Shown in pieces: positions 2,917-50,379 of a DNA stretch of 64,000 bases. Source of the DNA: Brevundimonas vancanneytii. Its GTDB lineage: Bacteria; Bacteroidota; Bacteroidia; Chitinophagales; Chitinophagaceae. Position 1 is the first letter of the stretch; each line of letters opens with the position of its first letter. The position numbers were made by a program, and so were the translations under genes. The DNA is taken from NCBI GenBank assembly GCA_943368425.1, contig CALRLC020000006.1, positions 47,893 to 111,892 on the forward strand, given 5' to 3'. The notes under the pieces were generated by a model. It was not told the origin of the DNA. It was given only the letters and a program-made list of their open reading frames with translations, and did not search any database.

Positions 2917-2936
2917 ATCTGAATACGAATATACGG

Positions 2937-3008
2937 ATAGTCTGTGGTCATTGGTTCATAGTCCATGACCTATAAGCCATAGACTATGGGCTATCGACCA
3001 TGGACCAT
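2937..3008. repeat. Heptamer inverted-arm element, ATRGTCY family, empty
   Basis: ATAGTCT-GTGGTCA-TTGGTTC-ATAGTCC on the left; ccatagactatgggctatcgaccatggaccat on the right (reverse complement ATGGTCC-ATGGTCG-ATAGCCC-ATAGTCT); between divergent genes. Confidence 0.7.
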
Positions 3009-3067
3009 CAAAAATTACAGCATCGGTAAACACCACCCCGCCTTAGTTGTTACCTTTGGCAACTGTC

Positions 3068-4885
3068 ATGAGTGAAACGAGTAAAAAGAAGGTATTTGAT
3101 TTTTCCTTGCTAGGCAGGGTGTTCCATTTTGTGAAGCCTTACAAAGGCATGTTCTATCTCAGTTTGGTGTTGGCTGTGGTAATGGCTTTGTTCGCCCCTA
3201 TCAGACCATATCTGATTCAGTTAACCGTAGATAAAGCAACTGGTAAATCGGTTCACGCGCCCGGATGGTTGGAGACGCTACTTTTCAATACCGATCTTTC
3301 AGATGCGAGTCGATTCATTATCGCTGTTACACTTTTTCAAATCGTATTTCTGGTCGTAGAAACATCCATACGTTTTGTTTTCAGTTTTATTACAGCGTCT
3401 ATGGGACAGCATGTGGTGAAAGACATTCGCATTGCTGTGTATAAAAAAATATTAGGGCTGAATCTTCGACAATTCGATAAAACGCCTATTGGTACATTGA
3501 CTACAAGAACCATTGATGACATTGAAAGGATCAATGATATTTTTTCTGATGGCCTTATTCCAATCATCGCAGATCTTTTGATTATTATTATTACACTCGC
3601 CACCATGTTTTGGATGGATTGGCGTCTGACACTCATCAGCCTCGCGCCTTTTCCGATCATGATCATTGCCACTTATTATTTCAAAGAAAGTGTCAATAAA
3701 AGTTTCATCAAAGTGCGCAATGCGGTGGCCAGTTTAAATGCATTTGTTCAAGAGCACATCACCGGAATGCAGGTGGTACAGGCATTTGCGGCTGAGGATA
3801 GGGAGATGAGTAAGTTCAAAAATATTAATGCTGAGCATCGAAATGCCAATATCAAAGCCATTTTTGCTTACTCTGTTTTCTTTCCTATCGTAGAAGTAGT
3901 ACTTGCATTGAGCACCGGATTATTGGTATGGTGGATAGCGGGCAAAGCATTGGATGCAGGTTTATTGATGGCTTTTATATTATACCTAAACCAGATATTT
4001 CGTCCTTTACGTGTCATTGCCGATAAGTTCAATGTATTGCAAATGGGGATGGTTGCAGCAGAAAGAGTATTCAAAGTTCTCGATAATACCGATGAACTTT
4101 CGGATGCTGATAAAGGATCTTATCAACCTGCTGTTATTAAAGGAGATATTGCTTTTGAACAAGTTTCCTTTGCTTATATCGATGAAAATTACGTACTGAA
4201 AAACGTGAGTTTTCAAGTGAAAGCAGGTGAAACAGTGGCATTGGTTGGACATACCGGCAGCGGTAAAACCTCCATCATCAGCTTATTGAACAGATTGTAC
4301 CACATTCAAAAGGGTGTGATTAATATGGATGGTGTCAATATCAATGAATATGACATTGATCGATTGAGAAAAAGTATGGGTGTGGTGTTACAAGATGTAT
4401 TCTTGTTTTCTGGTTCTGTAATGGATAATATCACACTTCGGGATCCCTCCATTCGTAAAGAACAAGTGATAGAAGCCGCGAAGATGATCGGGGTACATGA
4501 TTTTATCATGCAATTGCCGGGTGGCTATGATTACAATGTGATGGAAAGAGGGAGTACGCTTAGTTTGGGTCAAAGACAACTGCTGTCATTCATACGTGCA
4601 TTATTGTATAATCCATCTGTATTGATCTTAGATGAAGCCACATCTTCTATTGATACAGAAAGTGAAATGTTGATCGAAAAAGCGATTGATAAACTCATCT
4701 CCGGCAGAACCTCTATTGTAATTGCTCACAGACTTTCTACTATTCGCAAAGCGGATAAAATTATAGTGCTGGATAAAGGCGAGATCAAAGAGATCGGCAG
4801 TCATGATGAACTCTTGCTTATGGGTGGGTTTTATGCCAAATTACATGAGATGCAATTTGAAAAAAAGAAGACCAGCTTAGTTTAA
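3068..4885 (+). CDS. ABC exporter, fused TMD plus NBD (MsbA/MdlB-like)
   Basis: Walker A GHTGSGKT, signature LSLGQRQ, Walker B LILDEATS. Start moved to the ATG at 3068, downstream of a TACCTTTG box. Confidence 0.9.
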   Translation: MSETSKKKVFDFSLLGRVFHFVKPYKGMFYLSLVLAVVMALFAPIRPYLIQLTVDKATGKSVHAPGWLETLLFNTDLSDASRFIIAVTLFQIVFLVVETSIRFVFSFITASMGQHVVKDIRIAVYKKILGLNLRQFDKTPIGTLTTRTIDDIERINDIFSDGLIPIIADLLIIIITLATMFWMDWRLTLISLAPFPIMIIATYYFKESVNKSFIKVRNAVASLNAFVQEHITGMQVVQAFAAEDREMSKFKNINAEHRNANIKAIFAYSVFFPIVEVVLALSTGLLVWWIAGKALDAGLLMAFILYLNQIFRPLRVIADKFNVLQMGMVAAERVFKVLDNTDELSDADKGSYQPAVIKGDIAFEQVSFAYIDENYVLKNVSFQVKAGETVALVGHTGSGKTSIISLLNRLYHIQKGVINMDGVNINEYDIDRLRKSMGVVLQDVFLFSGSVMDNITLRDPSIRKEQVIEAAKMIGVHDFIMQLPGGYDYNVMERGSTLSLGQRQLLSFIRALLYNPSVLILDEATSSIDTESEMLIEKAIDKLISGRTSIVIAHRLSTIRKADKIIVLDKGEIKEIGSHDELLLMGGFYAKLHEMQFEKKKTSLV

Positions 4886-19534: not shown

Positions 19535-19566
19535 CAGTATAGCTTTAGGGTATAAAAATACGACTT

Positions 19567-19631
19567 TAGTCCATAGTCTATGGACCATAGTGAATAGATG
19601 ATCAACTATGTACCATGGACCATGGACTATC
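19567..19631. repeat. Heptamer inverted-arm element, ATRGTCY family, empty
   Basis: tagtccatagtctatggaccatagtgaatag ... actatgtaccatggaccatggactatc, between divergent pdxA and rsmA. Confidence 0.7.
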
Positions 19632-19659
19632 AGCCAAGATACTACCTACCTTTGCCCCA

Positions 19660-23209: not shown

Positions 23210-23314
23210 AGTGAAAGGTGAAAAGTGAAAGGACAAATGTATTTTTCCTGCTATGGGCTATAGTCCATGGTAGGAAAATTTTTTTGACTTTTCACTTTTG
23301 ACTTTTCACTTTTG
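23210..23314. repeat. AAAGTGA-family inverted arms enclosing a nested ATRGTCY-type hairpin
   Basis: Left arm agtgaaaggtgaaaagtgaaagg; right arm ttttgac-ttttcac-ttttgac-ttttcac-ttttg; inner hairpin ttttcctgctatgggctatagtccatggtaggaaaa at 23243-23278. Confidence 0.75.
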
Positions 23315-31009: not shown

Positions 31010-33826
31010 ATGGAATACAATTTCAGGGACATTGAAAAGAAATGGCAGAAAGAATGGACTGATACCCATGCCTATCAGGTAAAGAATGACAGCACTAAGC
31101 CTAAATATTATGTGCTGGATATGTTCCCTTATCCGAGTGGAGCTGGATTGCATGTTGGGCATCCGCTAGGTTATATTGCTTCGGATATCGTAAGCCGTTT
31201 CAAAAGGCTCAAAGGTTTCAATGTATTACACCCTATGGGTTATGATGCGTTTGGCTTACCTGCTGAACAATATGCATTGGAGCATGGTGTACATCCTGCA
31301 AAAAGTACCGCCCAGAATATTGATAATTTCAGAAAGCAGTTAGACAATATCGGATTCAGTTATGATTGGAATCGTGAAGTACGAACCTGTGATGCTGATT
31401 ACTATAAATGGACCCAATGGATATTCCTTCAACTCTTCAATAGTTTCTACGATCGTCACCAACAAAAAGCTGTGGCGATTAGTGAACTGATCAACTCTTT
31501 TGAGCAAGAAGGAAACACAAAACATATTTGTCCGGGTAACCCTACGCTGGAATTTACTGCTGAAGCATGGAAAGCTTTTTCTGAAAAGGAACAGCAAGAT
31601 ATTCTGATGGATTATCGTCTTGCTTTTTGTGGTTATGGTGAAGTGAACTGGTGTGAGGCCTTGGGAACTGTATTGGCCAATGATGAAGTAGTGAATGGTG
31701 TGAGTGAACGTGGCGGGCATCCTGTTGTAAAAAAGAAATTGCGTCAGTGGTATTTACGTATCACTGAATATGCTGATCGTTTGTTAAGCGGACTTGATAC
31801 CATCGAGTTCAGCGAAGCGATGAAAGAAATGCAGACGAATTGGATCGGTAAATCTTCGGGAGCGGAGATTAGCTTCAAGCTTCAGGCTGCAAGCCACAAG
31901 CAAGAGCAATCAAGCTTGCAGCTTGAAGCTAGCAGCTTGGAGCTCCTCGTCTACACTACCCGTCCCGATACCATTTTCGGTGTAGACTTTATGGTGGTGG
32001 CGCCGGAGCATGAATTGATCGAAAAAATTACAACAGCTGAGCAGAAAGAAGCTGTAGAGGCATATATCACTTATGTAAAAAGCAGGAGCGATAGAGAGCG
32101 TCAGGCCGAGAAAAAAAATACGGGATGTTTTACAGGAGCTTATGCCATCAATCCTTTTGATGGAAGAGAGATTCCGGTATGGATATCAGAATATGTACTC
32201 GCAGGTTATGGAACGGGAGCTATCATGGCCGTTCCTTGTGGCGATGAAAGGGATTTCAAATTTGCTAAGCATTTCAATATTCCTGTCACCAATATCATAG
32301 GTGATGCATTTGATGGAACAGATGCCAATCCAACCAAAGATGCAGTGCTGAGCAATAGCGGATTTTTGAATGGCATGAAAATGCGCAATGCCATTGAAGT
32401 GGTGATTGAGAAGTTAGAAGCCATGGGTATCGGCAAACGCAAAGTGAATTACAAAATGCGTGATGCGGCTTTCAGTCGCCAGCGTTATTGGGGTGAACCA
32501 TTTCCGATCGTTTGGCAGGATGGTATTGCGTATCCATTGGATGAGAAAGAATTACCACTCTTATTACCCGATGTAGAGAGTTATGGTCCGGGGCCGGATG
32601 GAGAAGGGCCACTAGCCAATTTGAGTGATTGGAAGAGCACAACTTACAATGGTAAACCCGCAGTGCGTGAAACCAATACCATGCCCGGTTATGCAGGTAG
32701 CAGTTGGTATTTCCTGCGTTATATGGATCCTAACAATGAACAGGCATTTTGCGATAAGAAGGTCAGTGATTATTGGAATCAGGTAGATCTGTATATCGGT
32801 GGAACAGAACATGCGGTTGGACATTTATTGTACAGCCGTATGTGGACCAAAGCCTTGTATGACTTAGGTTATATAGGATTTGATGAACCGTTTAGGAAAT
32901 TGTTGAATCAGGGGATGATACAAGGGAGTAGTAGGTTTGTGTATCGAAAAAAAGGGACGCAGACTTTTGTTTCCTCAAACCTAAAGCAAGATATAGAAGT
33001 AGATGAGTTACACGTTGATGTCAACATTGTGGATGGTGTTGAATTAGATATTGACGCTTTCAAGAAATGGCGCAATGGTGAATATGCCAATGCTGAATTT
33101 ATTTTAGAAGATGGCAAATACATCTGCGGCGTTGAAGTCGAAAAAATGTCCAAATCCAAATTCAACACTGTAAATCCGGATACATTGGTGGAGAAGTTTG
33201 GTGCCGATACTTTCCGCATGTACGAAATGTTCCTCGGTCCTGTTGATCAAAGCAAACCATGGGATACCAAGGGTATTGAAGGGGTACATCGTTTCCTGAA
33301 AAAATTATGGCGTTTATTTTTTGATGAGAACAAAGGAAAGATCTGGACGGATGAACAACCCACTGCGGAAGAATTGAAAGTATTACATCGCACCATCAAA
33401 AAAATTGATGACGATACAGAACGTTATAGTTTCAATACAGCTGTGAGCAGCTTTATGATTTGTGTGAATGAATTGAGTGATCTGAAGTGTCATAAAAAAC
33501 AAATCCTTCAGGATGTATTGATTCTCTTGACTCCCTATGCGCCACATATTGCAGCGGAACTCTGGAAGCAATTGGGTAATGAAGGATCTGTACTGGATGC
33601 AAGCTTCCCGACATTCAATGCTGCGTATGTTACTGAGACAAGCAAAGAATATCCCATCAGTATCAATGGTAAAACACGTACCAATATTTCCATTGCATTG
33701 GATGCTACGGAAGATCAGGTAAAAGAGATCGTTCTCTCCAATGAGTTAGTACAAAAATGGATGGAAGGAAAGCCTTTGAAGAAACTCATCTTCGTAAAAG
33801 GAAAAATGATCAATGTAGTCATATAA
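31010..33826 (+). CDS. leuS: Leucyl-tRNA synthetase
   Basis: MFPYPSGAGLHVGH, TTRPDT editing motif and KMSKS. Confidence 0.98.
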   Translation: MEYNFRDIEKKWQKEWTDTHAYQVKNDSTKPKYYVLDMFPYPSGAGLHVGHPLGYIASDIVSRFKRLKGFNVLHPMGYDAFGLPAEQYALEHGVHPAKSTAQNIDNFRKQLDNIGFSYDWNREVRTCDADYYKWTQWIFLQLFNSFYDRHQQKAVAISELINSFEQEGNTKHICPGNPTLEFTAEAWKAFSEKEQQDILMDYRLAFCGYGEVNWCEALGTVLANDEVVNGVSERGGHPVVKKKLRQWYLRITEYADRLLSGLDTIEFSEAMKEMQTNWIGKSSGAEISFKLQAASHKQEQSSLQLEASSLELLVYTTRPDTIFGVDFMVVAPEHELIEKITTAEQKEAVEAYITYVKSRSDRERQAEKKNTGCFTGAYAINPFDGREIPVWISEYVLAGYGTGAIMAVPCGDERDFKFAKHFNIPVTNIIGDAFDGTDANPTKDAVLSNSGFLNGMKMRNAIEVVIEKLEAMGIGKRKVNYKMRDAAFSRQRYWGEPFPIVWQDGIAYPLDEKELPLLLPDVESYGPGPDGEGPLANLSDWKSTTYNGKPAVRETNTMPGYAGSSWYFLRYMDPNNEQAFCDKKVSDYWNQVDLYIGGTEHAVGHLLYSRMWTKALYDLGYIGFDEPFRKLLNQGMIQGSSRFVYRKKGTQTFVSSNLKQDIEVDELHVDVNIVDGVELDIDAFKKWRNGEYANAEFILEDGKYICGVEVEKMSKSKFNTVNPDTLVEKFGADTFRMYEMFLGPVDQSKPWDTKGIEGVHRFLKKLWRLFFDENKGKIWTDEQPTAEELKVLHRTIKKIDDDTERYSFNTAVSSFMICVNELSDLKCHKKQILQDVLILLTPYAPHIAAELWKQLGNEGSVLDASFPTFNAAYVTETSKEYPISINGKTRTNISIALDATEDQVKEIVLSNELVQKWMEGKPLKKLIFVKGKMINVVI
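31871..31944. repeat. AAGCTRC-family inverted-arm element lying in frame inside leuS
   Basis: aagcttc-aggctgc-aagccac-aagc ... gcttgca-gcttgaa-gctagca-gcttg; encodes SFKLQAASHKQEQSSLQLEASSLEL. Confidence 0.8.
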
Positions 33827-43484: not shown

Positions 43485-43489
43485 ATTTT

Positions 43490-43958
43490 AGTGAGTAGTC
43501 AGTAGTGAGTAGTTAGTTATCTGAGCTAATCATTACTGAGATCATTTTAAAATTTTCTATTATCAAATCTTTTATGCTATCTAGTTTTTCAAGTGTGATA
43601 TATTTAAGATCTACCGCTAATCCAATTGCTGTATCAACCTCAATTAGTGATCCTCTTGCAATTTCAAAAAACCTCTTTCTTTCAAGATTTGATTTGCGAG
43701 AACATCCTTCTGCAATATTCAAATGAACAGAAGATGATGCTCTTCTGATTTGTTGAACTAAAGCAAATCTTTCATCAGTAGGGAAATTTCTTGATAGCTT
43801 ATAGCATTCAAGTACCAAATCCCTAGATTTTAAAAAGACTGATAGTTTTGTATGAGCAAGCTGTAAAAACATAGTTGTCAAAACTAGTCTCTAACAGCGA
43901 TGAAGATTTACGTATTTCCCGCAAAACTAAACTCACTACTCACTATTGACTACTCACT
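43490..43958 (-). mobile_element. Putative cargo-loaded element: AGTGAGT-family inverted arms enclosing a four-helix-bundle gene
   Basis: Arms at 43490-43517 and 43931-43958 match at 26/28 nt as inverted repeats and enclose the gene at 43513-43872. Mobility is inferred, not shown. Confidence 0.55.
43513..43872 (-). CDS. Four-helix-bundle protein (23S rRNA IVS protein/Avd-like family)
   Basis: FPTDERFALVQQIRRASSSVHLNIAEG and RFFEIARGSLIEV motifs. The ATG at 43872 is 6 nt after TAGTTTTG. Confidence 0.9.
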   Translation of the reverse strand: MFLQLAHTKLSVFLKSRDLVLECYKLSRNFPTDERFALVQQIRRASSSVHLNIAEGCSRKSNLERKRFFEIARGSLIEVDTAIGLAVDLKYITLEKLDSIKDLIIENFKMISVMISSDN

Positions 43959-44927
43959 AATCAGCCTGATCGCATCTTTAGCGAAATAGGTTGCAATCAA
44001 ATCGGCGCCTGCTCGTTTAATTGATGTAAGGCTCTCAATGATCGCTTTTTCTTCATTCAGCCAACCCATTTTTGATGCTGCTTTGATCATTGCATATTCA
44101 CCGCTTACCTGATAAGCGCTTACCGGAACTTCTACTGCATTCTTCACTTCGCGGATGATATCCAGATAAGCCATGGCAGGTTTTACCATGACGATATCAG
44201 CTCCTTCTTCAATATCCATTAACGTTTCTTTGATGGCTTCTGTTCGGTTGGCGAAATCCATTTGATACGTTTTTTTATCGCCGAATCCGGGAGCGCTATC
44301 CAATGCATCTCTGAATGGACCATAGAAACATGAGGCATACTTGGCGCTATAACTCATGATACCCACTTTCGTGAATCCACTATCTTCTAAACCGTTTCTT
44401 ATTGCGCCAATTCTACCATCCATCATGTCACTGGGGGCAACAAAATCGCATCCTGCTTCTGCATGACTGATACTCATCTTTACCAAAGCTTCTACTGTTT
44501 CATCATTCACGATCTCGCCGTCTTTTACGATGCCATCGTGTCCGTAAGAAGAGAATGGATCTAAGGCAACATCAGTCATTACTATTATTTCCGGAACAGC
44601 ATCTTTGATCGCTTTAATACTTCTTTGCATCAATCCGTTTTTGTTCCATGCTTCTTTGCCTGTATTATCTTTCAGTTCATCTTTACATTTGATGAACAGC
44701 AGTACACAACGAATACCCATCTCCCACAATACTTTCACTTCTTTTACAGTAAAATCTAAAGACATCCTGTAATACCCCGGCATCGAAGCGATCTCCGTTT
44801 TCACATTTTCTCCTTCATCAATAAATAACGGAGCAATAAAATCAGCCGGCTTCAATATCGTTTCAGCCACCATTGCACGGATAGCATGTGATTGGCGGAG
44901 GATGCGGTTGCGTCGTTGGAGGTACAT
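43950..44927 (-). CDS. hemB: Porphobilinogen synthase
   Basis: DVALDPFSSYGHDG, PSDMMDGR, MSYSAKYAS, MVKP and YQVSGEY motifs. The Cys-cluster Zn site is absent, suggesting a Mg/K-type enzyme. Confidence 0.97.
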   Translation of the reverse strand: MYLQRRNRILRQSHAIRAMVAETILKPADFIAPLFIDEGENVKTEIASMPGYYRMSLDFTVKEVKVLWEMGIRCVLLFIKCKDELKDNTGKEAWNKNGLMQRSIKAIKDAVPEIIVMTDVALDPFSSYGHDGIVKDGEIVNDETVEALVKMSISHAEAGCDFVAPSDMMDGRIGAIRNGLEDSGFTKVGIMSYSAKYASCFYGPFRDALDSAPGFGDKKTYQMDFANRTEAIKETLMDIEEGADIVMVKPAMAYLDIIREVKNAVEVPVSAYQVSGEYAMIKAASKMGWLNEEKAIIESLTSIKRAGADLIATYFAKDAIRLISE

Positions 44928-44932
44928 GAATC

Positions 44933-45415
44933 TTTGATTTTTTGATCTTTGATTTCTTGATTTATTGTTTGGTCTGCTTGATTTTTAAATCAAACGTTTT
45001 ATTCGCGGCAGTAAATATGGCTGTTAGTTCATTTGCTTCTGCTATTAATTGATCTATGATACTATTGGTACTAAGTTTTGTTGCCTTGATGATTTCTAGC
45101 CAATAATGTGACTCGTCGATTTCTTCCAGAACAATTTTTAATTTATGTGCAAAATCAGCTTGTGATTTTGATCTGTTTGTTGCACGATAATTAGCTCCTA
45201 CCGATCCTGAAGAACGTATCAATTGTTTCGCAATTTCAAAGCCAGCAGGTGTTTTCGGCAGACAATCACAAAATAATACAATATCAATATTGAACTGTTT
45301 TGTTCTGTCTTGTAAAGTTTTCCGATTCATTCTGTAAAATTATGCTAGATCACCTCGAACGATACGGAGCGTTTGTTATGAAATAAATCAAGAAATCAAA
45401 GATCAAAAAATCAAA
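44933..45415 (-). mobile_element. Putative cargo-loaded element: perfect 33-bp ATCAA-family inverted repeats enclosing a four-helix-bundle gene
   Basis: 44933-44965 is the exact reverse complement of 45383-45415 (ataaatcaagaaatcaaagatcaaaaaatcaaa). Confidence 0.6.
44962..45330 (-). CDS. Four-helix-bundle protein (23S rRNA IVS protein/Avd-like family)
   Basis: QLIRSSGSVGANYRA, FAHKLKIVLEEIDESHYWLE and EANELTAIF motifs. Confidence 0.9.
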   Translation of the reverse strand: MNRKTLQDRTKQFNIDIVLFCDCLPKTPAGFEIAKQLIRSSGSVGANYRATNRSKSQADFAHKLKIVLEEIDESHYWLEIIKATKLSTNSIIDQLIAEANELTAIFTAANKTFDLKIKQTKQ

Positions 45416-47441: not shown

Positions 47442-47512
47442 AGTGAGTAGTGAGTAGTCAGTAGTCAGTAGGGAGAGATATTTACTCACTACTGACTATT
47501 CACTACTCACTA
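47442..47512. repeat. AGTGAGT-family inverted-arm element, empty (hemD/hemE junction)
   Basis: agtgagt-agtgagt-agtcagt-agtcagt, spacer gggagagatatt, inverted tactcac-tactgac-tattcac-tactcac-ta. Confidence 0.8.
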
Positions 47513-48210
47513 AAATGTTGAATCGCTTTCCTCACCAGTTCTTCTTTTCCTGGTGAGTGAGCTGTGATGATTGAATTGTTTGTATATTTTTTGATGGCTG
47601 CTTCAGTAGTAGTTCCTATGGCAAAGAATACTGTTGAAGTAGCGGCTTTATTTTGATTGAAAAAACTTTCTACTGCACTCGGACTAAAAAATATAATACC
47701 ATTATAAGTAGTATCCATTTTTTGATGGAGTGGGATCGTTTTGTATACGATGATCTCTTCAACACTGATACCTTCTTCTTTTAGTTTGGCAGGTAATTCA
47801 TCTCTTCGCTGATCACCACAGAAGAAGAACACTTCATCTAATTCATCATTGTCTGATAAAATGGTTTCTGCAAGTTCTGATGCATTGTTGCCAGTGCCAC
47901 TAATAGACTGTTCTCCAAAATAGTTGTGTATCAGTTCTTGTGTTGTATTACCCATACAATAAATATTCCATTCCGGCACTTGTTGGTCTAGCATGGTGAT
48001 TACACTTTCTACAGCATTCATGCTTGTAAATACAACCGTGGCATATTGCAAAGCGATTTGTTCAACCTCCTGTTGTGTATCAATGTCCTGAACAGGTTCT
48101 GTATCGATCAAAGGAATGATATCCAACTGAATGTTTTGTTCAGCGGCTTCCTGTATCAGTGTTTCTTTTACAGGTCTGGTAGATAATATTTTCTTTTTAC
48201 TTTCCTGCAT
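47503..48210 (-). CDS. hemD: Uroporphyrinogen-III synthase
   Basis: ILSTRP, VVFTSMNAVES, VYKT, FFSPSAVESF and FAIGTTT motifs; expected operon position. Confidence 0.88.
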   Translation of the reverse strand: MQESKKKILSTRPVKETLIQEAAEQNIQLDIIPLIDTEPVQDIDTQQEVEQIALQYATVVFTSMNAVESVITMLDQQVPEWNIYCMGNTTQELIHNYFGEQSISGTGNNASELAETILSDNDELDEVFFFCGDQRRDELPAKLKEEGISVEEIIVYKTIPLHQKMDTTYNGIIFFSPSAVESFFNQNKAATSTVFFAIGTTTEAAIKKYTNNSIITAHSPGKEELVRKAIQHFSE

Positions 48211-49162
48211 TTCTGATTTCCTGTATGATTTCTTCTGCACCCATCGCTAAGATTTCTTGTCCGGCTTCTGTGCCTATTGCAGCCCCAACGGAAATAGGTA
48301 CGTTAGTGCTGATATCAACTTTCTGACGACCATCAAGAGATACCACATTGCCCTGGAAAAAAATCTGATCACCCTGTATTTGTGCGAGTGCAGAAATAGG
48401 TGTAGCGCAACCGCCCATCAACTGACGTAAAAAATTTCTTTCTGCATGCGCACAGATCGCTGTTTCGTTATGGTGTAGTTGCTGACAGCTATTGAAGATT
48501 TCAGTTTCTCCTTCTCTGCACACAACCATCACGGCACCTTGTGCCGGAGCAGGTAACATCCAATCCAAATCAATTGCTTTTTCCGGACGAAGGTTGATTC
48601 TTTCAAGTCCTGCAGCTGCAAAGATGGCACCTTGCCAATTGCTTTCATCCAGTTTACGCAGTCGGGTATTGACGTTGCCACGTAAGTTATCAAACTGATG
48701 ATTGGGATAACGATTGAGCCATTGTGCTTTACGGCGAACGCTGCTGGTGGCGAATAGTCCATGGTCCATAGTCCATGGTCTATGGACCATGGACCATTCA
48801 CCATTCACATAACCCAGCGCTTCCGGTATATCCTCTTCCTTATAAACAAGAATGTCTTTGTATGATGCACGTTTTAATACTGCAGCTTCTTGTATGCCTT
48901 TAGCAAGTTGTGTAGGCACGTCTTTCATGGAGTGAACAGCAATATCAATTTTGTTACTGAGCAATGCAGCATCTAGCGTTTTAGTGAAGATACCCTGAAC
49001 ACCGATCTCATAAAGTGGTGTAACTAGATCAATATCTCCTTCACTTTTGATGTACACGAGTTCAGAAGCCACTCCTTTTTCTTTCAGGAGTTCTTGCACC
49101 CATGTGGCTTGCCACACGGCGAGCTGACTGTCGCGTGTTCCTATACGTACTACCTTGGTCAT
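48197..49162 (-). CDS. hemC: Hydroxymethylbilane synthase (carries a repeat-derived insertion)
   Basis: RIGTRDSQLAVWQA, DIAVHSMKD, TSSVRR, RGNVNTRL and GGCATP motifs. Confidence 0.96.
   Translation of the reverse strand: MTKVVRIGTRDSQLAVWQATWVQELLKEKGVASELVYIKSEGDIDLVTPLYEIGVQGIFTKTLDAALLSNKIDIAVHSMKDVPTQLAKGIQEAAVLKRASYKDILVYKEEDIPEALGYVNGEWSMVHRPWTMDHGLFATSSVRRKAQWLNRYPNHQFDNLRGNVNTRLRKLDESNWQGAIFAAAGLERINLRPEKAIDLDWMLPAPAQGAVMVVCREGETEIFNSCQQLHHNETAICAHAERNFLRQLMGGCATPISALAQIQGDQIFFQGNVVSLDGRQKVDISTNVPISVGAAIGTEAGQEILAMGAEEIIQEIRNAGK
48754..48808. repeat. ATRGTCY-family inverted-arm element lying in frame inside hemC
   Basis: atagtcc-atggtcc-atagtcc-atggtct-atggacc-atggacc-attcacc-attcac; encodes VNGEWSMVHRPWTMDHGL. 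Confidence 0.82.
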
Positions 49163-49170
49163 ATCTAGGT

Positions 49171-50379
49171 TTAATGACTGCTCGTCATGAAGTCGTTGAT
49201 GGCTTCAATGTAATAACAACCGGGCTGATGTCTGTTACGCATCTTAACGGCTACATTGTTCACCACTTTCTGAATGGCTTCTGTATTGATATCTTCTGAT
49301 GCTCTCCGTGAAGTTAAAAACAATCCACAGGAATGCATATCATGTAATTTTTGCTTCACCGCCTTTAAAATAGGAACATGACGGCGCTGATGATTCCATA
49401 GCACAAACTCATTCATGTGTTTGCATATGATGTTCATTGCTTTGGGTACTTCTGCTTTTCTTTTCTGCAGGGTTTGATCATTGATCTTGGACAGATCATC
49501 CACATTTGCCAGCACTACATTTTTTTGTTGTGCCAATGATGGATCAATATTATGAGGAATAGAAAGATCGATCAGGATCTTTTTAGTGTTTGCTTTCAAA
49601 TTCTTTGTAGTCACTACCGGCTGCTCTGCATTGGTTGCCACAATAATGATATCAGCACTGTTTATCTCATTCTCCAACTGATTCCAATCTGCACTTTCTA
49701 ACTGTAGGTTTTCGGCCAGTTCAGCTGCTTTTTCAGCAGTTCTGTTAATGAGTGTGATGTTTTTTGTATCTAAATAATCAACCAGATTCTTACAGGTATT
49801 TCTGCCGATCTTCCCTGTTCCGAGTAAGACGATCTTTTTATCAGCAGTCTCTGTCAATTGCTGGCGAATGAATTGAATGGCAGCAAAGGAAACAGAAATG
49901 GTACCACCACTCAATGCAGTTTCATTTTTGATCTGTTTGGACGATTGTAAAACAGTATTGAATAAACGTTCAATAAATGAGCCAATCATTCCTTTTTCTT
50001 TCGCAAATTTTATCGCGAGCTTCATCTGCCCAACGATCTCATAATCTCCCAGAATTTGAGAATCCAGTCCTGCGCCTACAGAAAAAATATGTTGTAAAGC
50101 TTCTTCGTCTTGTTTGATATAACAGCGTTGAACAAAATCAATCTTGCTTCCGATGGTCACTGCACACAATAAGTCAATTAAAGTATTCGAATCAGGTGCA
50201 ATGCCATAGATCTCTGTACGGTTACAGGTGCTCAACACAAACAATTCCTTGATGCCAGCTGCTTTAGCCCGTTGAAGAATAATGGTATATTGTTCCGGAT
50301 TGATCGCATAGTTACCACGAACAGCCGCATCGGTCTTTTTGTAGTTGATTCCTGCTATGAAAAATTGTCCTGTCTCCAT
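49171..50379 (-). CDS. hemA: Glutamyl-tRNA reductase
   Basis: LSTCNRTEIY, GLDSQILGDYEIVGQ, LLGTGKIG and IDLSIPHNI motifs. Confidence 0.96.
   Translation of the reverse strand: METGQFFIAGINYKKTDAAVRGNYAINPEQYTIILQRAKAAGIKELFVLSTCNRTEIYGIAPDSNTLIDLLCAVTIGSKIDFVQRCYIKQDEEALQHIFSVGAGLDSQILGDYEIVGQMKLAIKFAKEKGMIGSFIERLFNTVLQSSKQIKNETALSGGTISVSFAAIQFIRQQLTETADKKIVLLGTGKIGRNTCKNLVDYLDTKNITLINRTAEKAAELAENLQLESADWNQLENEINSADIIIVATNAEQPVVTTKNLKANTKKILIDLSIPHNIDPSLAQQKNVVLANVDDLSKINDQTLQKRKAEVPKAMNIICKHMNEFVLWNHQRRHVPILKAVKQKLHDMHSCGLFLTSRRASEDINTEAIQKVVNNVAVKMRNRHQPGCYYIEAINDFMTSSH

Follow-up and report, generated by a model that had tools for sequence, protein, structure and literature searches.

How does a gene for a haem-synthesis enzyme come to carry a palindromic array of seven-nucleotide repeats in its reading frame, and does the array do anything there? 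The question is raised by hemC, the gene for porphobilinogen deaminase (PBGD, or hydroxymethylbilane synthase), in a 64,000-nucleotide stretch of DNA, here called the window, that spans positions 47893-111892 of contig C6 (CALRLC020000006.1) in a Chitinophagaceae assembly of 3.49 Mb and 38.9% GC. This gene, referred to below as the query, lies on the minus strand at 48197-49162 as an intact open reading frame (ORF) of 321 amino acids, the sole long ORF over the array. An earlier note, made from the sequence alone, had described a palindromic heptamer element translated within HemC just ahead of its TSSxRR motif. The array, its frame and its hairpin are all confirmed here; the range given (48754-48808) was right in location and one base short of the full array, 48753-48808. 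Our analyses indicate that the segment is likely a tolerated, translated and arms-only ("empty") copy of a genome-wide family of heptamer hairpins, lodged in a permissive loop at the HemC surface, and that it probably has no host function in hemC.

The array consists of eight tandem heptamers (56 nt) on the minus strand, which in mRNA sense, from 48808 down to 48753, read GTGAATG, GTGAATG, GTCCATG, GTCCATA, GACCATG, GACTATG, GACCATG and GACTATT. The plus strand over 48754-48808 reads ATAGTCC, ATGGTCC, ATAGTCC, ATGGTCT, ATGGACC, ATGGACC, ATTCACC and ATTCACA, that is, four ATRGTCY units followed by inverted ATGGACC units and then by two ATTCACM units. Identity at a lag of seven is 0.59 versus 0.20 at other lags, and the array is also scored by Tandem Repeats Finder (TRF). 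The word ATGGTCCATRGTCC, with up to two mismatches allowed, has 15 matches in the window versus 0.69 expected, and none of 100 shuffles reached 15. Codons 119-136 (48755-48808) encode the 18 residues VNGEWSMVHRPWTMDHGL, which lead directly into FATSSVRR (48731-48754, minus strand), the beta-strand and cofactor/substrate-binding Ser/Arg motif that reads VGTSSLRR in E. coli. The array stands in place of about five ancestral loop codons, which blurs the boundaries of the insertion; of the features by which a miniature inverted-repeat transposable element (MITE) is defined, namely terminal inverted repeats, a target-site duplication and a cognate transposase, inverted arms are present.

In the mRNA, positions 48748-48803 (minus strand) form a hairpin with a left arm at 48780-48803, an 8-nt loop at 48772-48779 and a right arm at 48748-48771. 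Its stem is an uninterrupted 24 bp including two G.U pairs, with a folding energy of -51.1 kcal/mol (z -8.56; no shuffle out of 200 was as good), and it outperforms all 100 synonymous-codon reshuffles of its own peptide (z -4.4). The two imperfect pairs, G.U in the mRNA, correspond to C.A mismatches on the other strand; the sense RNA folds at -51 kcal/mol and the plus strand more weakly, at -36 kcal/mol. An Rfam search with the hairpin returned no family, only sub-threshold matches to generic hairpins (miRNA precursors), and inspection of the sequence found no U-tract behind the stem.

The enzyme around the array appears to be normal. HemC matches PF01379 Porphobil_deam (E 4e-67, 226 bits) and PF03900 Porphobil_deamC (49 bits) in Pfam as well as the E. 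coli PBGD structures (E 3e-50), and its nearest public records, at 95% identity, come from Sediminibacterium metagenome-assembled genomes. In an alignment of 42 HemC orthologues, residues R10, D81, R143, R144, R161, R167 and C252 are invariant; they align to the catalytic and cofactor residues R11, D84, R131, R132, R149, R155 and C242 of E. coli. Opposite the insert, the E. coli enzyme (1YPN/1PDA) has a 15-residue gap between DSLDALPA and GSIVGTSSLRR, which confirms the statement in the earlier note that this stretch of HemC is normally short. An AlphaFold2 model built from the same alignment has a mean predicted local distance difference test (pLDDT) score of 86 and a predicted template modelling (pTM) score of 0.85. 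It superposes on 1AH5, 1YPN and 1PDA with template modelling (TM) scores of 0.89-0.90 and a root-mean-square deviation of 2.5 A, and retains the three-domain PBGD fold. The pLDDT falls below 60 only in residues 43-55, which we take to be the mobile active-site lid of PBGD, and in residues ~110-135, the insert, which is predicted to lie between strands 103-107 and 136-139. The model thus supports, as a prediction, the tolerated loop insertion proposed in the earlier note, in an otherwise normal PBGD fold, and the 18 residues are probably a disordered excursion.

The segment is not peculiar to the query. We collected 86 HemC genes from Chitinophagaceae and outgroups and measured the loop between KRASYKD and ATSS. 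It is short in 18 of them (20-25 residues, typically 24, e.g. LLVYKNDISFLDDFNAAAIIATSS), with a lag-7 identity of 0.10-0.34 in all except ortholog L084 (0.77); since both length and pattern match those of E. coli and the outgroups, the short loop represents the ancestral state. Exactly half of the set (43/86) has a heptamer-built loop of 26-64 residues, where lag-7 identity is 0.45-0.66 versus ~0.23 at other lags, and the remaining 25 loops are expanded without clear periodicity. A typical heptamer-built peptide reads VNG[EQ]WSMVN ... [LF]TIHHSPFTI, which is the translation of a DNA hairpin made of (GTGAATG/GTCAATG)n, a loop and (CATTCAC)n; such loops were found in Sediminibacterium, Ferruginibacter, Lacibacter and Foetidibacter. 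On a HemC gene tree computed with the loop masked, the heptamer-built state changes at least 20 times. In about 20 orthologues the fold is stronger than that of 97-100 out of 100 sequences encoding an identical peptide with reshuffled synonymous codons, and other periodic loops (L019, L030, L034, L042 and L047) fold no better than this control. Deletion derivatives with recognizable remnants were also seen, such as ...SPLTIATSS in L068 and ...VNGQ...SHLTI in L059. Across relatives, then, the segment recurs with its DNA periodicity and is poorly conserved as protein, the opposite of a protein-conserved segment lacking that periodicity, which the earlier note had named as the outcome that would speak against it.

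Two further features of this loop were observed in the same set. Nine orthologues (L046, L051, L056, L060, L062, L065, L067, L069 and L090) share a 33-36-residue class of loop, xIV(D/E)xWxLxE...PLGDGG(I/F)IATSS, which mostly lacks periodicity (lag-7 identity 0.24-0.46). At the level of protein this class is conserved across several distinct Ferruginibacter-like lineages, and it could represent a fixed, perhaps domesticated, remnant of an old array. Moreover, the LLV codons (CTGCTGGT) and TSS codons (ACCAGCAG) that flank the loop are complementary in many orthologues, for example L022, L024, L061 and L074, and form an outer stem of 8-9 bp around it, even in orthologues that have no insert. The query flank, ATTCTTGT, does not form this outer stem, which may have arisen as a side effect of Ser AGC codons being frozen.

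Comparison of close relatives suggests how the array may be remodelled. A 60-nt allele with inner CCATGGW units is carried by the query, L015-17, L027, L020-21 and a metagenome contig (L125), and a 69-nt GTGAATG/ATTCACC hairpin allele by L018, L019 and L022-24. Both are present in both Sediminibacterium sister clades, and L018, with the 69-nt allele, is only ~8% diverged in protein from the query. The query array itself has old-type units on the outside (GTGAATG twice ... ATTCGCC) and the CCATGGW type inside, and L020 is a mosaic of the two allele types. A single A-to-C change turns GTCAATG into GTCCATG, and the complementary change turns CATTGAC into CATGGAC. The alleles of L026 and L022 differ in length by exactly 21 nt, or three units, and among 13 close alleles of the Sediminibacterium clade length differences are 0, 9 or 21 nt only, always in frame. 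Five 84-nt alleles are 94% paired, with one compensatory pair, a G-C to U-A change in L018. That the two arms change together is suggested, at the level of sequence, by the change of unit type across alleles and not by statistical covariation.

The spelling of the units follows a simple coding logic. Because a heptamer array passes through all three frames, a stop codon anywhere in its unit must come into frame sooner or later. An array of (GTGAATG)n, for instance, reads VNGEW*M, and the unit found at that point of the frame is always one without a stop: all hemC alleles have TCA, TTA or GCA where the in-frame TGA would fall, giving VNGEW-S/L/A-M. The variant (GTCAATG)n is open and its complement (CATTGAC)n reads H*PLTID, whereas (GTCCATG)n, which reads VHGPWSM, and (CATGGAC)n, which reads HGPWTMD, are both open. 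The CCATGGW spelling therefore permits translation of a perfectly complementary hairpin, and the query hairpin is the most stable of the ortholog set. Freedom from stops is a sufficient explanation for this spelling and not a unique one, as about half of all heptamers share the property.

Constraint on the peptide seems to be low. In comparisons with four orthologues that are 93-95% identical overall, the 18 insert codons show 17-28% residue differences versus 3-7% elsewhere, and first- and second-position substitutions number 4-6 of 36 sites in the insert versus 14-26 of 606 elsewhere (p 0.003-0.08). Within the query clade the insert changes four to eight times faster than the rest of HemC, at all codon positions. 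Third-position divergence in the insert does not differ from that in the rest of hemC, which gives no evidence either way for constraint at the nucleotide level. As far as substitution patterns can tell, the insert evolves almost neutrally as protein, its peptide being dictated by the DNA repeat.

The hemC array belongs to an abundant repeat family. TRF reports 746 rows at period 7 and 228 at period 14 in this genome, compared with 84 at period 6, and merging yields 781 period-7 arrays, or ~0.22 per kb. The arrays are mostly intergenic: a stop-to-stop ORF of 150 codons or more spans only ~30% of them versus 87% of random positions, and 139 of 588 grouped elements fold below -0.3 kcal/nt versus 6 random segments. 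Unit spellings vary: AGTGAGT is the most frequent, followed by AAATAAG, AAGCTGC, AAAAGTG, GTGAATG and others. The CCATGGW spelling of the hemC core occurs in 33 tracts of the genome, 28 of them intergenic, and the hemC tract is the longest. In the window, units of the CCATGGW/ATRGTCY type form an intergenic hairpin at 2930-3012 (-36.1 kcal/mol), between divergent genes ending at 2916 and starting at 3068, a hairpin at a divergent gene junction at 19562-19636 (-30.9 kcal/mol), whose ends overlap crude gene calls (ending at 19588 and starting at 19615), and a short intergenic hairpin at 23245-23275 (-20 kcal/mol) nested between GTGAAAG and TTTTCAC arrays. The relatives that the earlier note had placed at 2937 and 19567 are thus real hairpins of the same unit family. 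With gene calls outside the window being crude ORF calls, the elements fill convergent, divergent and tandem spacers equally, ~14-15% of each; therefore, the family does not simply consist of terminators. Termination was considered as its general role and rejected on this equal frequency and on the hemC stem, which lacks a U-tract.

Beyond this genome, (CATTCAC)3 arrays were found in 16 of 301 Bacteroidota genomes, and a reversed-word control almost always gave zero. Their occurrence is patchy: genomes from distant families (G240, G244 and G109) have 30-59 matches, and most sampled Chitinophagaceae have none.

Insertion into coding sequence is not confined to hemC either. Leaving aside 15-nt chance TRF matches and arrays just upstream of real start codons, we found strong in-frame hairpins in four other genes. 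The hairpin in the gene for LeuRS (31871-31944, plus strand; Pfam LeuRS), made of AAGCTKC units, folds at -46.7 kcal/mol and encodes FKLQAASHKQEQSSLQLEASSLEL; the one in lpxB folds at -45.3 kcal/mol. A hairpin in a fused 2-oxoacid dehydrogenase E1 gene (-34.5 kcal/mol) encodes the peptide SIVNSELSMVNIEDNQFIIDHSPFTIH exactly between the E1_dh and Transket_pyr domains, and that in a PurN-like gene (-29.3 kcal/mol) falls in the linker ahead of the formyltransferase domain. Shorter heptamer tracts occur in ValRS (twice), ArgH, an AAA_28 protein, MetRS, ribonucleotide reductase, YggS and an alpha/beta hydrolase, where the tract reads VVNGEWSMVNDVNDSLITID. Eight carriers are confirmed by Pfam: LeuRS, LpxB, E1, the PurN-like protein, ValRS, ArgH, the alpha/beta hydrolase and the AAA_28 protein. 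Between WIGKSxG and TTRPDT, LeuRS has 44 residues in the query genome versus a baseline of 30 in relatives (+14 residues), and another species of the genus (G022, L101) carries a CCATGGW-type array, VVHGPLTMDHGL, in the same loop. A repetitive loop of 46 residues is found at the same LeuRS site in G025 (L119).

We favor the following course of events. An array would have entered the HemC loop in an ancestor, or repeatedly. Slippage by whole units would since have reshaped it at that site, and of the resulting changes those in multiples of 3 nt alone would have survived. Changes would also be copied between the arms or imported from other genomic copies. With slippage and conversion of arms and copies, the array would stay seven-periodic and often palindromic while its units change. 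Selection would mainly keep the frame open, and in the query clade the core would have switched to CCATGGW, which is stop-free on both strands and allows a perfect hairpin. Several points weigh against this account. About 20 orthologues beat their synonymous reshuffles and both wobbles of the query stem are G.U on the mRNA strand, so that selection on RNA structure is possible. The loop is occupied in more lineages than random insertion with tolerance predicts, and insertion could be targeted; similarly, one LeuRS loop carries different unit types in two species. Covariation in the five 84-nt alleles is not significant, since 200 of 500 shuffles are as good as the single compensatory pair. Finally, we infer both the insertion and the arm-to-arm copying from the patterns described above.

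Alternatively, the hemC stem might be selected as an RNA element that tunes expression of hemC and hemD in a hemA-hemC-hemD transcript, for example as a site of RNase III cleavage or decay or as a ribosome pause between the coding halves of the message. Stems of 24 bp are long enough for a double-strand-specific RNase. Besides the excess over synonymous reshuffles in the query and about 20 orthologues and the strand asymmetry of the imperfect pairs, both given above, this proposal is favored by arms that stay complementary while unit types change, and by the terminal stems of S23p-carrying intervening sequence (IVS) elements, which are RNase III substrates in Coxiella (PMC4990558). However, the five periodic loops that fold no better than their control, the 18 orthologues with no insert and the free variation in stem length, loop and position are not what a functional stem would predict. 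Neither is the lack of significant covariation within one allele class, and similar hairpins occur in unrelated genes and in every type of intergenic spacer, while the hemC stem has no U-tract following it. On balance, we regard a functional mRNA hairpin as unlikely.

Heptamer arrays are also associated with genes of the S23p/IVS type. The genome has nine genes for PF05635 (23S_rRNA_IVP, or S23p) proteins, and all nine have heptamer arrays within ~20-150 nt; inverted array pairs flank both sides of six of them, or of seven when period-8 TRF rows in the window are counted. As arrays occur at only ~0.22 per kb, this association is not due to chance. Two of these genes are in the window. One (43537-43848, minus strand; PF05635, 112.6 bits) is enclosed by TAGTGAG x4 and ACTCACT x4.7 in a cargo-loaded element at 43489-43963; the other (45013-45306, minus strand; 59.5 bits) lies at 44930-45415 between inverted arrays of 7-8-nt units, ATCTTTG/TTTGATTT ... 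AAATCAA. The hemC copy holds an 8-nt loop and no PF05635 ORF, in contrast to the nine loaded copies elsewhere in the genome, and none of these nine has CCATGGW or GTGAATG arms. By analogy, the hemC copy may be linked to the loaded elements through its architecture, a resemblance short of a demonstrated parent-derivative relation. In published work, the IVS in Coxiella 23S rRNA combines an S23p ORF and a variable number of GACAGAT heptamers with a 28-bp terminal stem that RNase III cleaves (PMC4990558), and S23 proteins resemble Avd, the reverse transcriptase cofactor of diversity-generating retroelements (bioRxiv 10.1101/2023.10.23.563531).

It is conceivable, although we give it little credence, that the heptamer hairpins derive, as non-autonomous forms, from IVS-like elements that carry S23p, and that heptamer arrays are written or homed into existing hairpins and arrays by an active, structure-guided process, possibly one that pairs an Avd-like, nucleic-acid-binding S23p pentamer with a polymerase. 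If true, such a process would explain why the HemC and LeuRS loops hold differently spelled arrays in different lineages, why the arms change jointly and CCATGGW is nested inside GTGAATG/ATTCACC in hemC, and why arrays are patchy over Bacteroidota, Cyanobacteria and other phyla. The sole RVT_1 gene of the genome (C4:116228-116752) is a 298-residue ORF in a run of small same-strand ORFs and does not adjoin any S23p gene.

The earlier note had also proposed a phase-variation point, a contingency locus at which slippage of one heptamer would switch hemC, and hence haem synthesis, off and on. Its premise stands, as a 7-nt unit is not a multiple of three and gain or loss of one would frameshift hemC; whole-unit slippage on an evolutionary timescale is seen in the 21-nt difference between L026 and L022, and loss of haem synthesis is evidently survivable in a genus where 21 of 24 other genomes lack hemC. 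The switch itself, however, is very improbable. Known contingency tracts are long and perfect, whereas in hemC no more than two identical units follow one another. The frame is preserved in every one of the 86 orthologues (in consensus assemblies), and five relatives at 93-95% identity have exactly 60 nt despite many substitutions. A flank-anchored metagenome scan gave a sole match, of the same length as the L027 allele, which as a single match is uninformative. Other in-frame copies lie in genes such as lpxB and those for aminoacyl-tRNA synthetases, whose loss of expression would kill the cell, and hemC is not a typical contingency gene. Recruitment of the 18 residues as an adaptive loop, for an interaction surface, stability or regulation of the adjacent TSS/RR site, can likewise be set aside as hardly probable: although the expanded loop is retained in most Chitinophagaceae HemC and the non-periodic class (IVxxWxLxE...PLGDGG, 34-36 residues) is conserved as protein in several Ferruginibacter lineages, the query-clade insert has the elevated rate of change described above, loops vary widely in length and sequence, AlphaFold2 confidence is low and the peptide sequences follow precisely from the repeat units.

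A tolerated copy of a dispersed hairpin family has parallels among known systems. Rickettsia palindromic elements (RPEs; Ogata et al.) were described as "selfish DNA in protein-coding genes" (as summarized in PMC10969869). The likeness lies in a dispersed palindromic family found both in intergenic regions and in frame in unrelated housekeeping genes, and in a translated extra peptide placed where the fold tolerates it, here according to a predicted model. RPEs are ~100-150 bp long with a family consensus and a conserved peptide, whereas the hemC element is 56 nt of variable heptamers; its units turn over within one site, the same loop is occupied across genera, and the host belongs to Bacteroidota. 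The hemC element is thus RPE-like in behavior and not an RPE.

Heptanucleotide tandem repeats are known as the cyanobacterial STRR and long simple sequence repeats (LSSR), and as TAACTGA arrays in Beggiatoaceae, Cyanobacteria and a few Bacteroidetes (PMC4679880). They share with the present family a genome-wide excess at period 7, a mainly non-coding location, a patchy phylogeny and a coding use limited by stops in the unit. The published arrays are, in contrast, direct repeats mainly upstream of start codons, and paired inverted hairpin arrays, in-frame copies in enzymes and persistence at an orthologous site are not described there; the unit sequences appear to differ as well, those of the present family being GTGAATG, CCATGGW, AGTGAGT, AAGCTKC and others. 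IVS/S23p elements have a PF05635 ORF enclosed by a long stem of terminal inverted repeats, with heptamers of variable copy number beside the ORF (PMC4990558), whereas the hemC copy is without an ORF and resides in a protein-coding gene instead of rRNA helix 25/45. Contingency loci resemble it in having tandem units that are not a multiple of three inside an ORF; they differ in that hemC, a housekeeping gene, has a palindromic array with no long perfect tract and, among the assembled relatives, no out-of-frame variants. Overall, the hemC element is closest to RPEs in behavior, to heptanucleotide arrays in building blocks and to IVS/S23p elements in architecture, and it has the defining sequence features of none of the three. 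Our literature search, which covered the unit words and heptamer repeats in Bacteroidetes, turned up no account from Chitinophagaceae, only the parallels in PMC4679880 and PMC4990558. The hairpins in the same loop across genera, the in-frame copies in housekeeping genes and the S23p/IVS association had all escaped the earlier note.

If the hemC segment is indeed a tolerated hairpin copy, repeat DNA is translated within conserved enzymes of metabolism and translation in Chitinophagaceae, its sequence being set by a repeat process at the level of nucleic acid instead of by what the protein does, and a single HemC loop has been a long-lived, rapidly remodelled home of arrays across genera. It would be a natural setting in which to study the origin of palindromic tandem repeats and the means by which their complementarity and open reading are kept up. 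The association described above connects "orphan" heptamer arrays with S23p/IVS genes, a family that is poorly understood. Annotators and phylogeneticists should beware of treating such loops as ordinary homologous protein sequence. Conversely, HemC, LeuRS and LpxB would provide ready-made permissive insertion sites.

On the same strand as hemC lie a hemA-like ORF of 402 residues upstream (49171-50379, minus strand), whose identity comes from reading the sequence, and a hemD-like ORF downstream (47503-48240, minus strand; 245 residues as listed), identified by position and by such reading. Together they appear to form a hemA-hemC-hemD cluster. An inverted pair of arrays, AGTGAGT x4.9 and TACTCAC x4.3, at 47442-47512 falls right where the hemD-like ORF ends (stop codon at 47503-47505); closing the cluster, it could act as a transcript-end hairpin. 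The genomes of the same GTDB genus that lack hemC include many of 1.3-2.9 Mb and several that are at least 97% complete, and haem biosynthesis seems to have been lost across most of the genus and retained in larger genomes. Elsewhere in the query genome, the top-scoring array among those listed (TRF score 156) is an 11-copy CATTACC tract at C9:86019-86096. It sits inside the 5' end of a 1101-codon open frame, where it reads (HYPLPIT)n, and is probably upstream of the true start codon.

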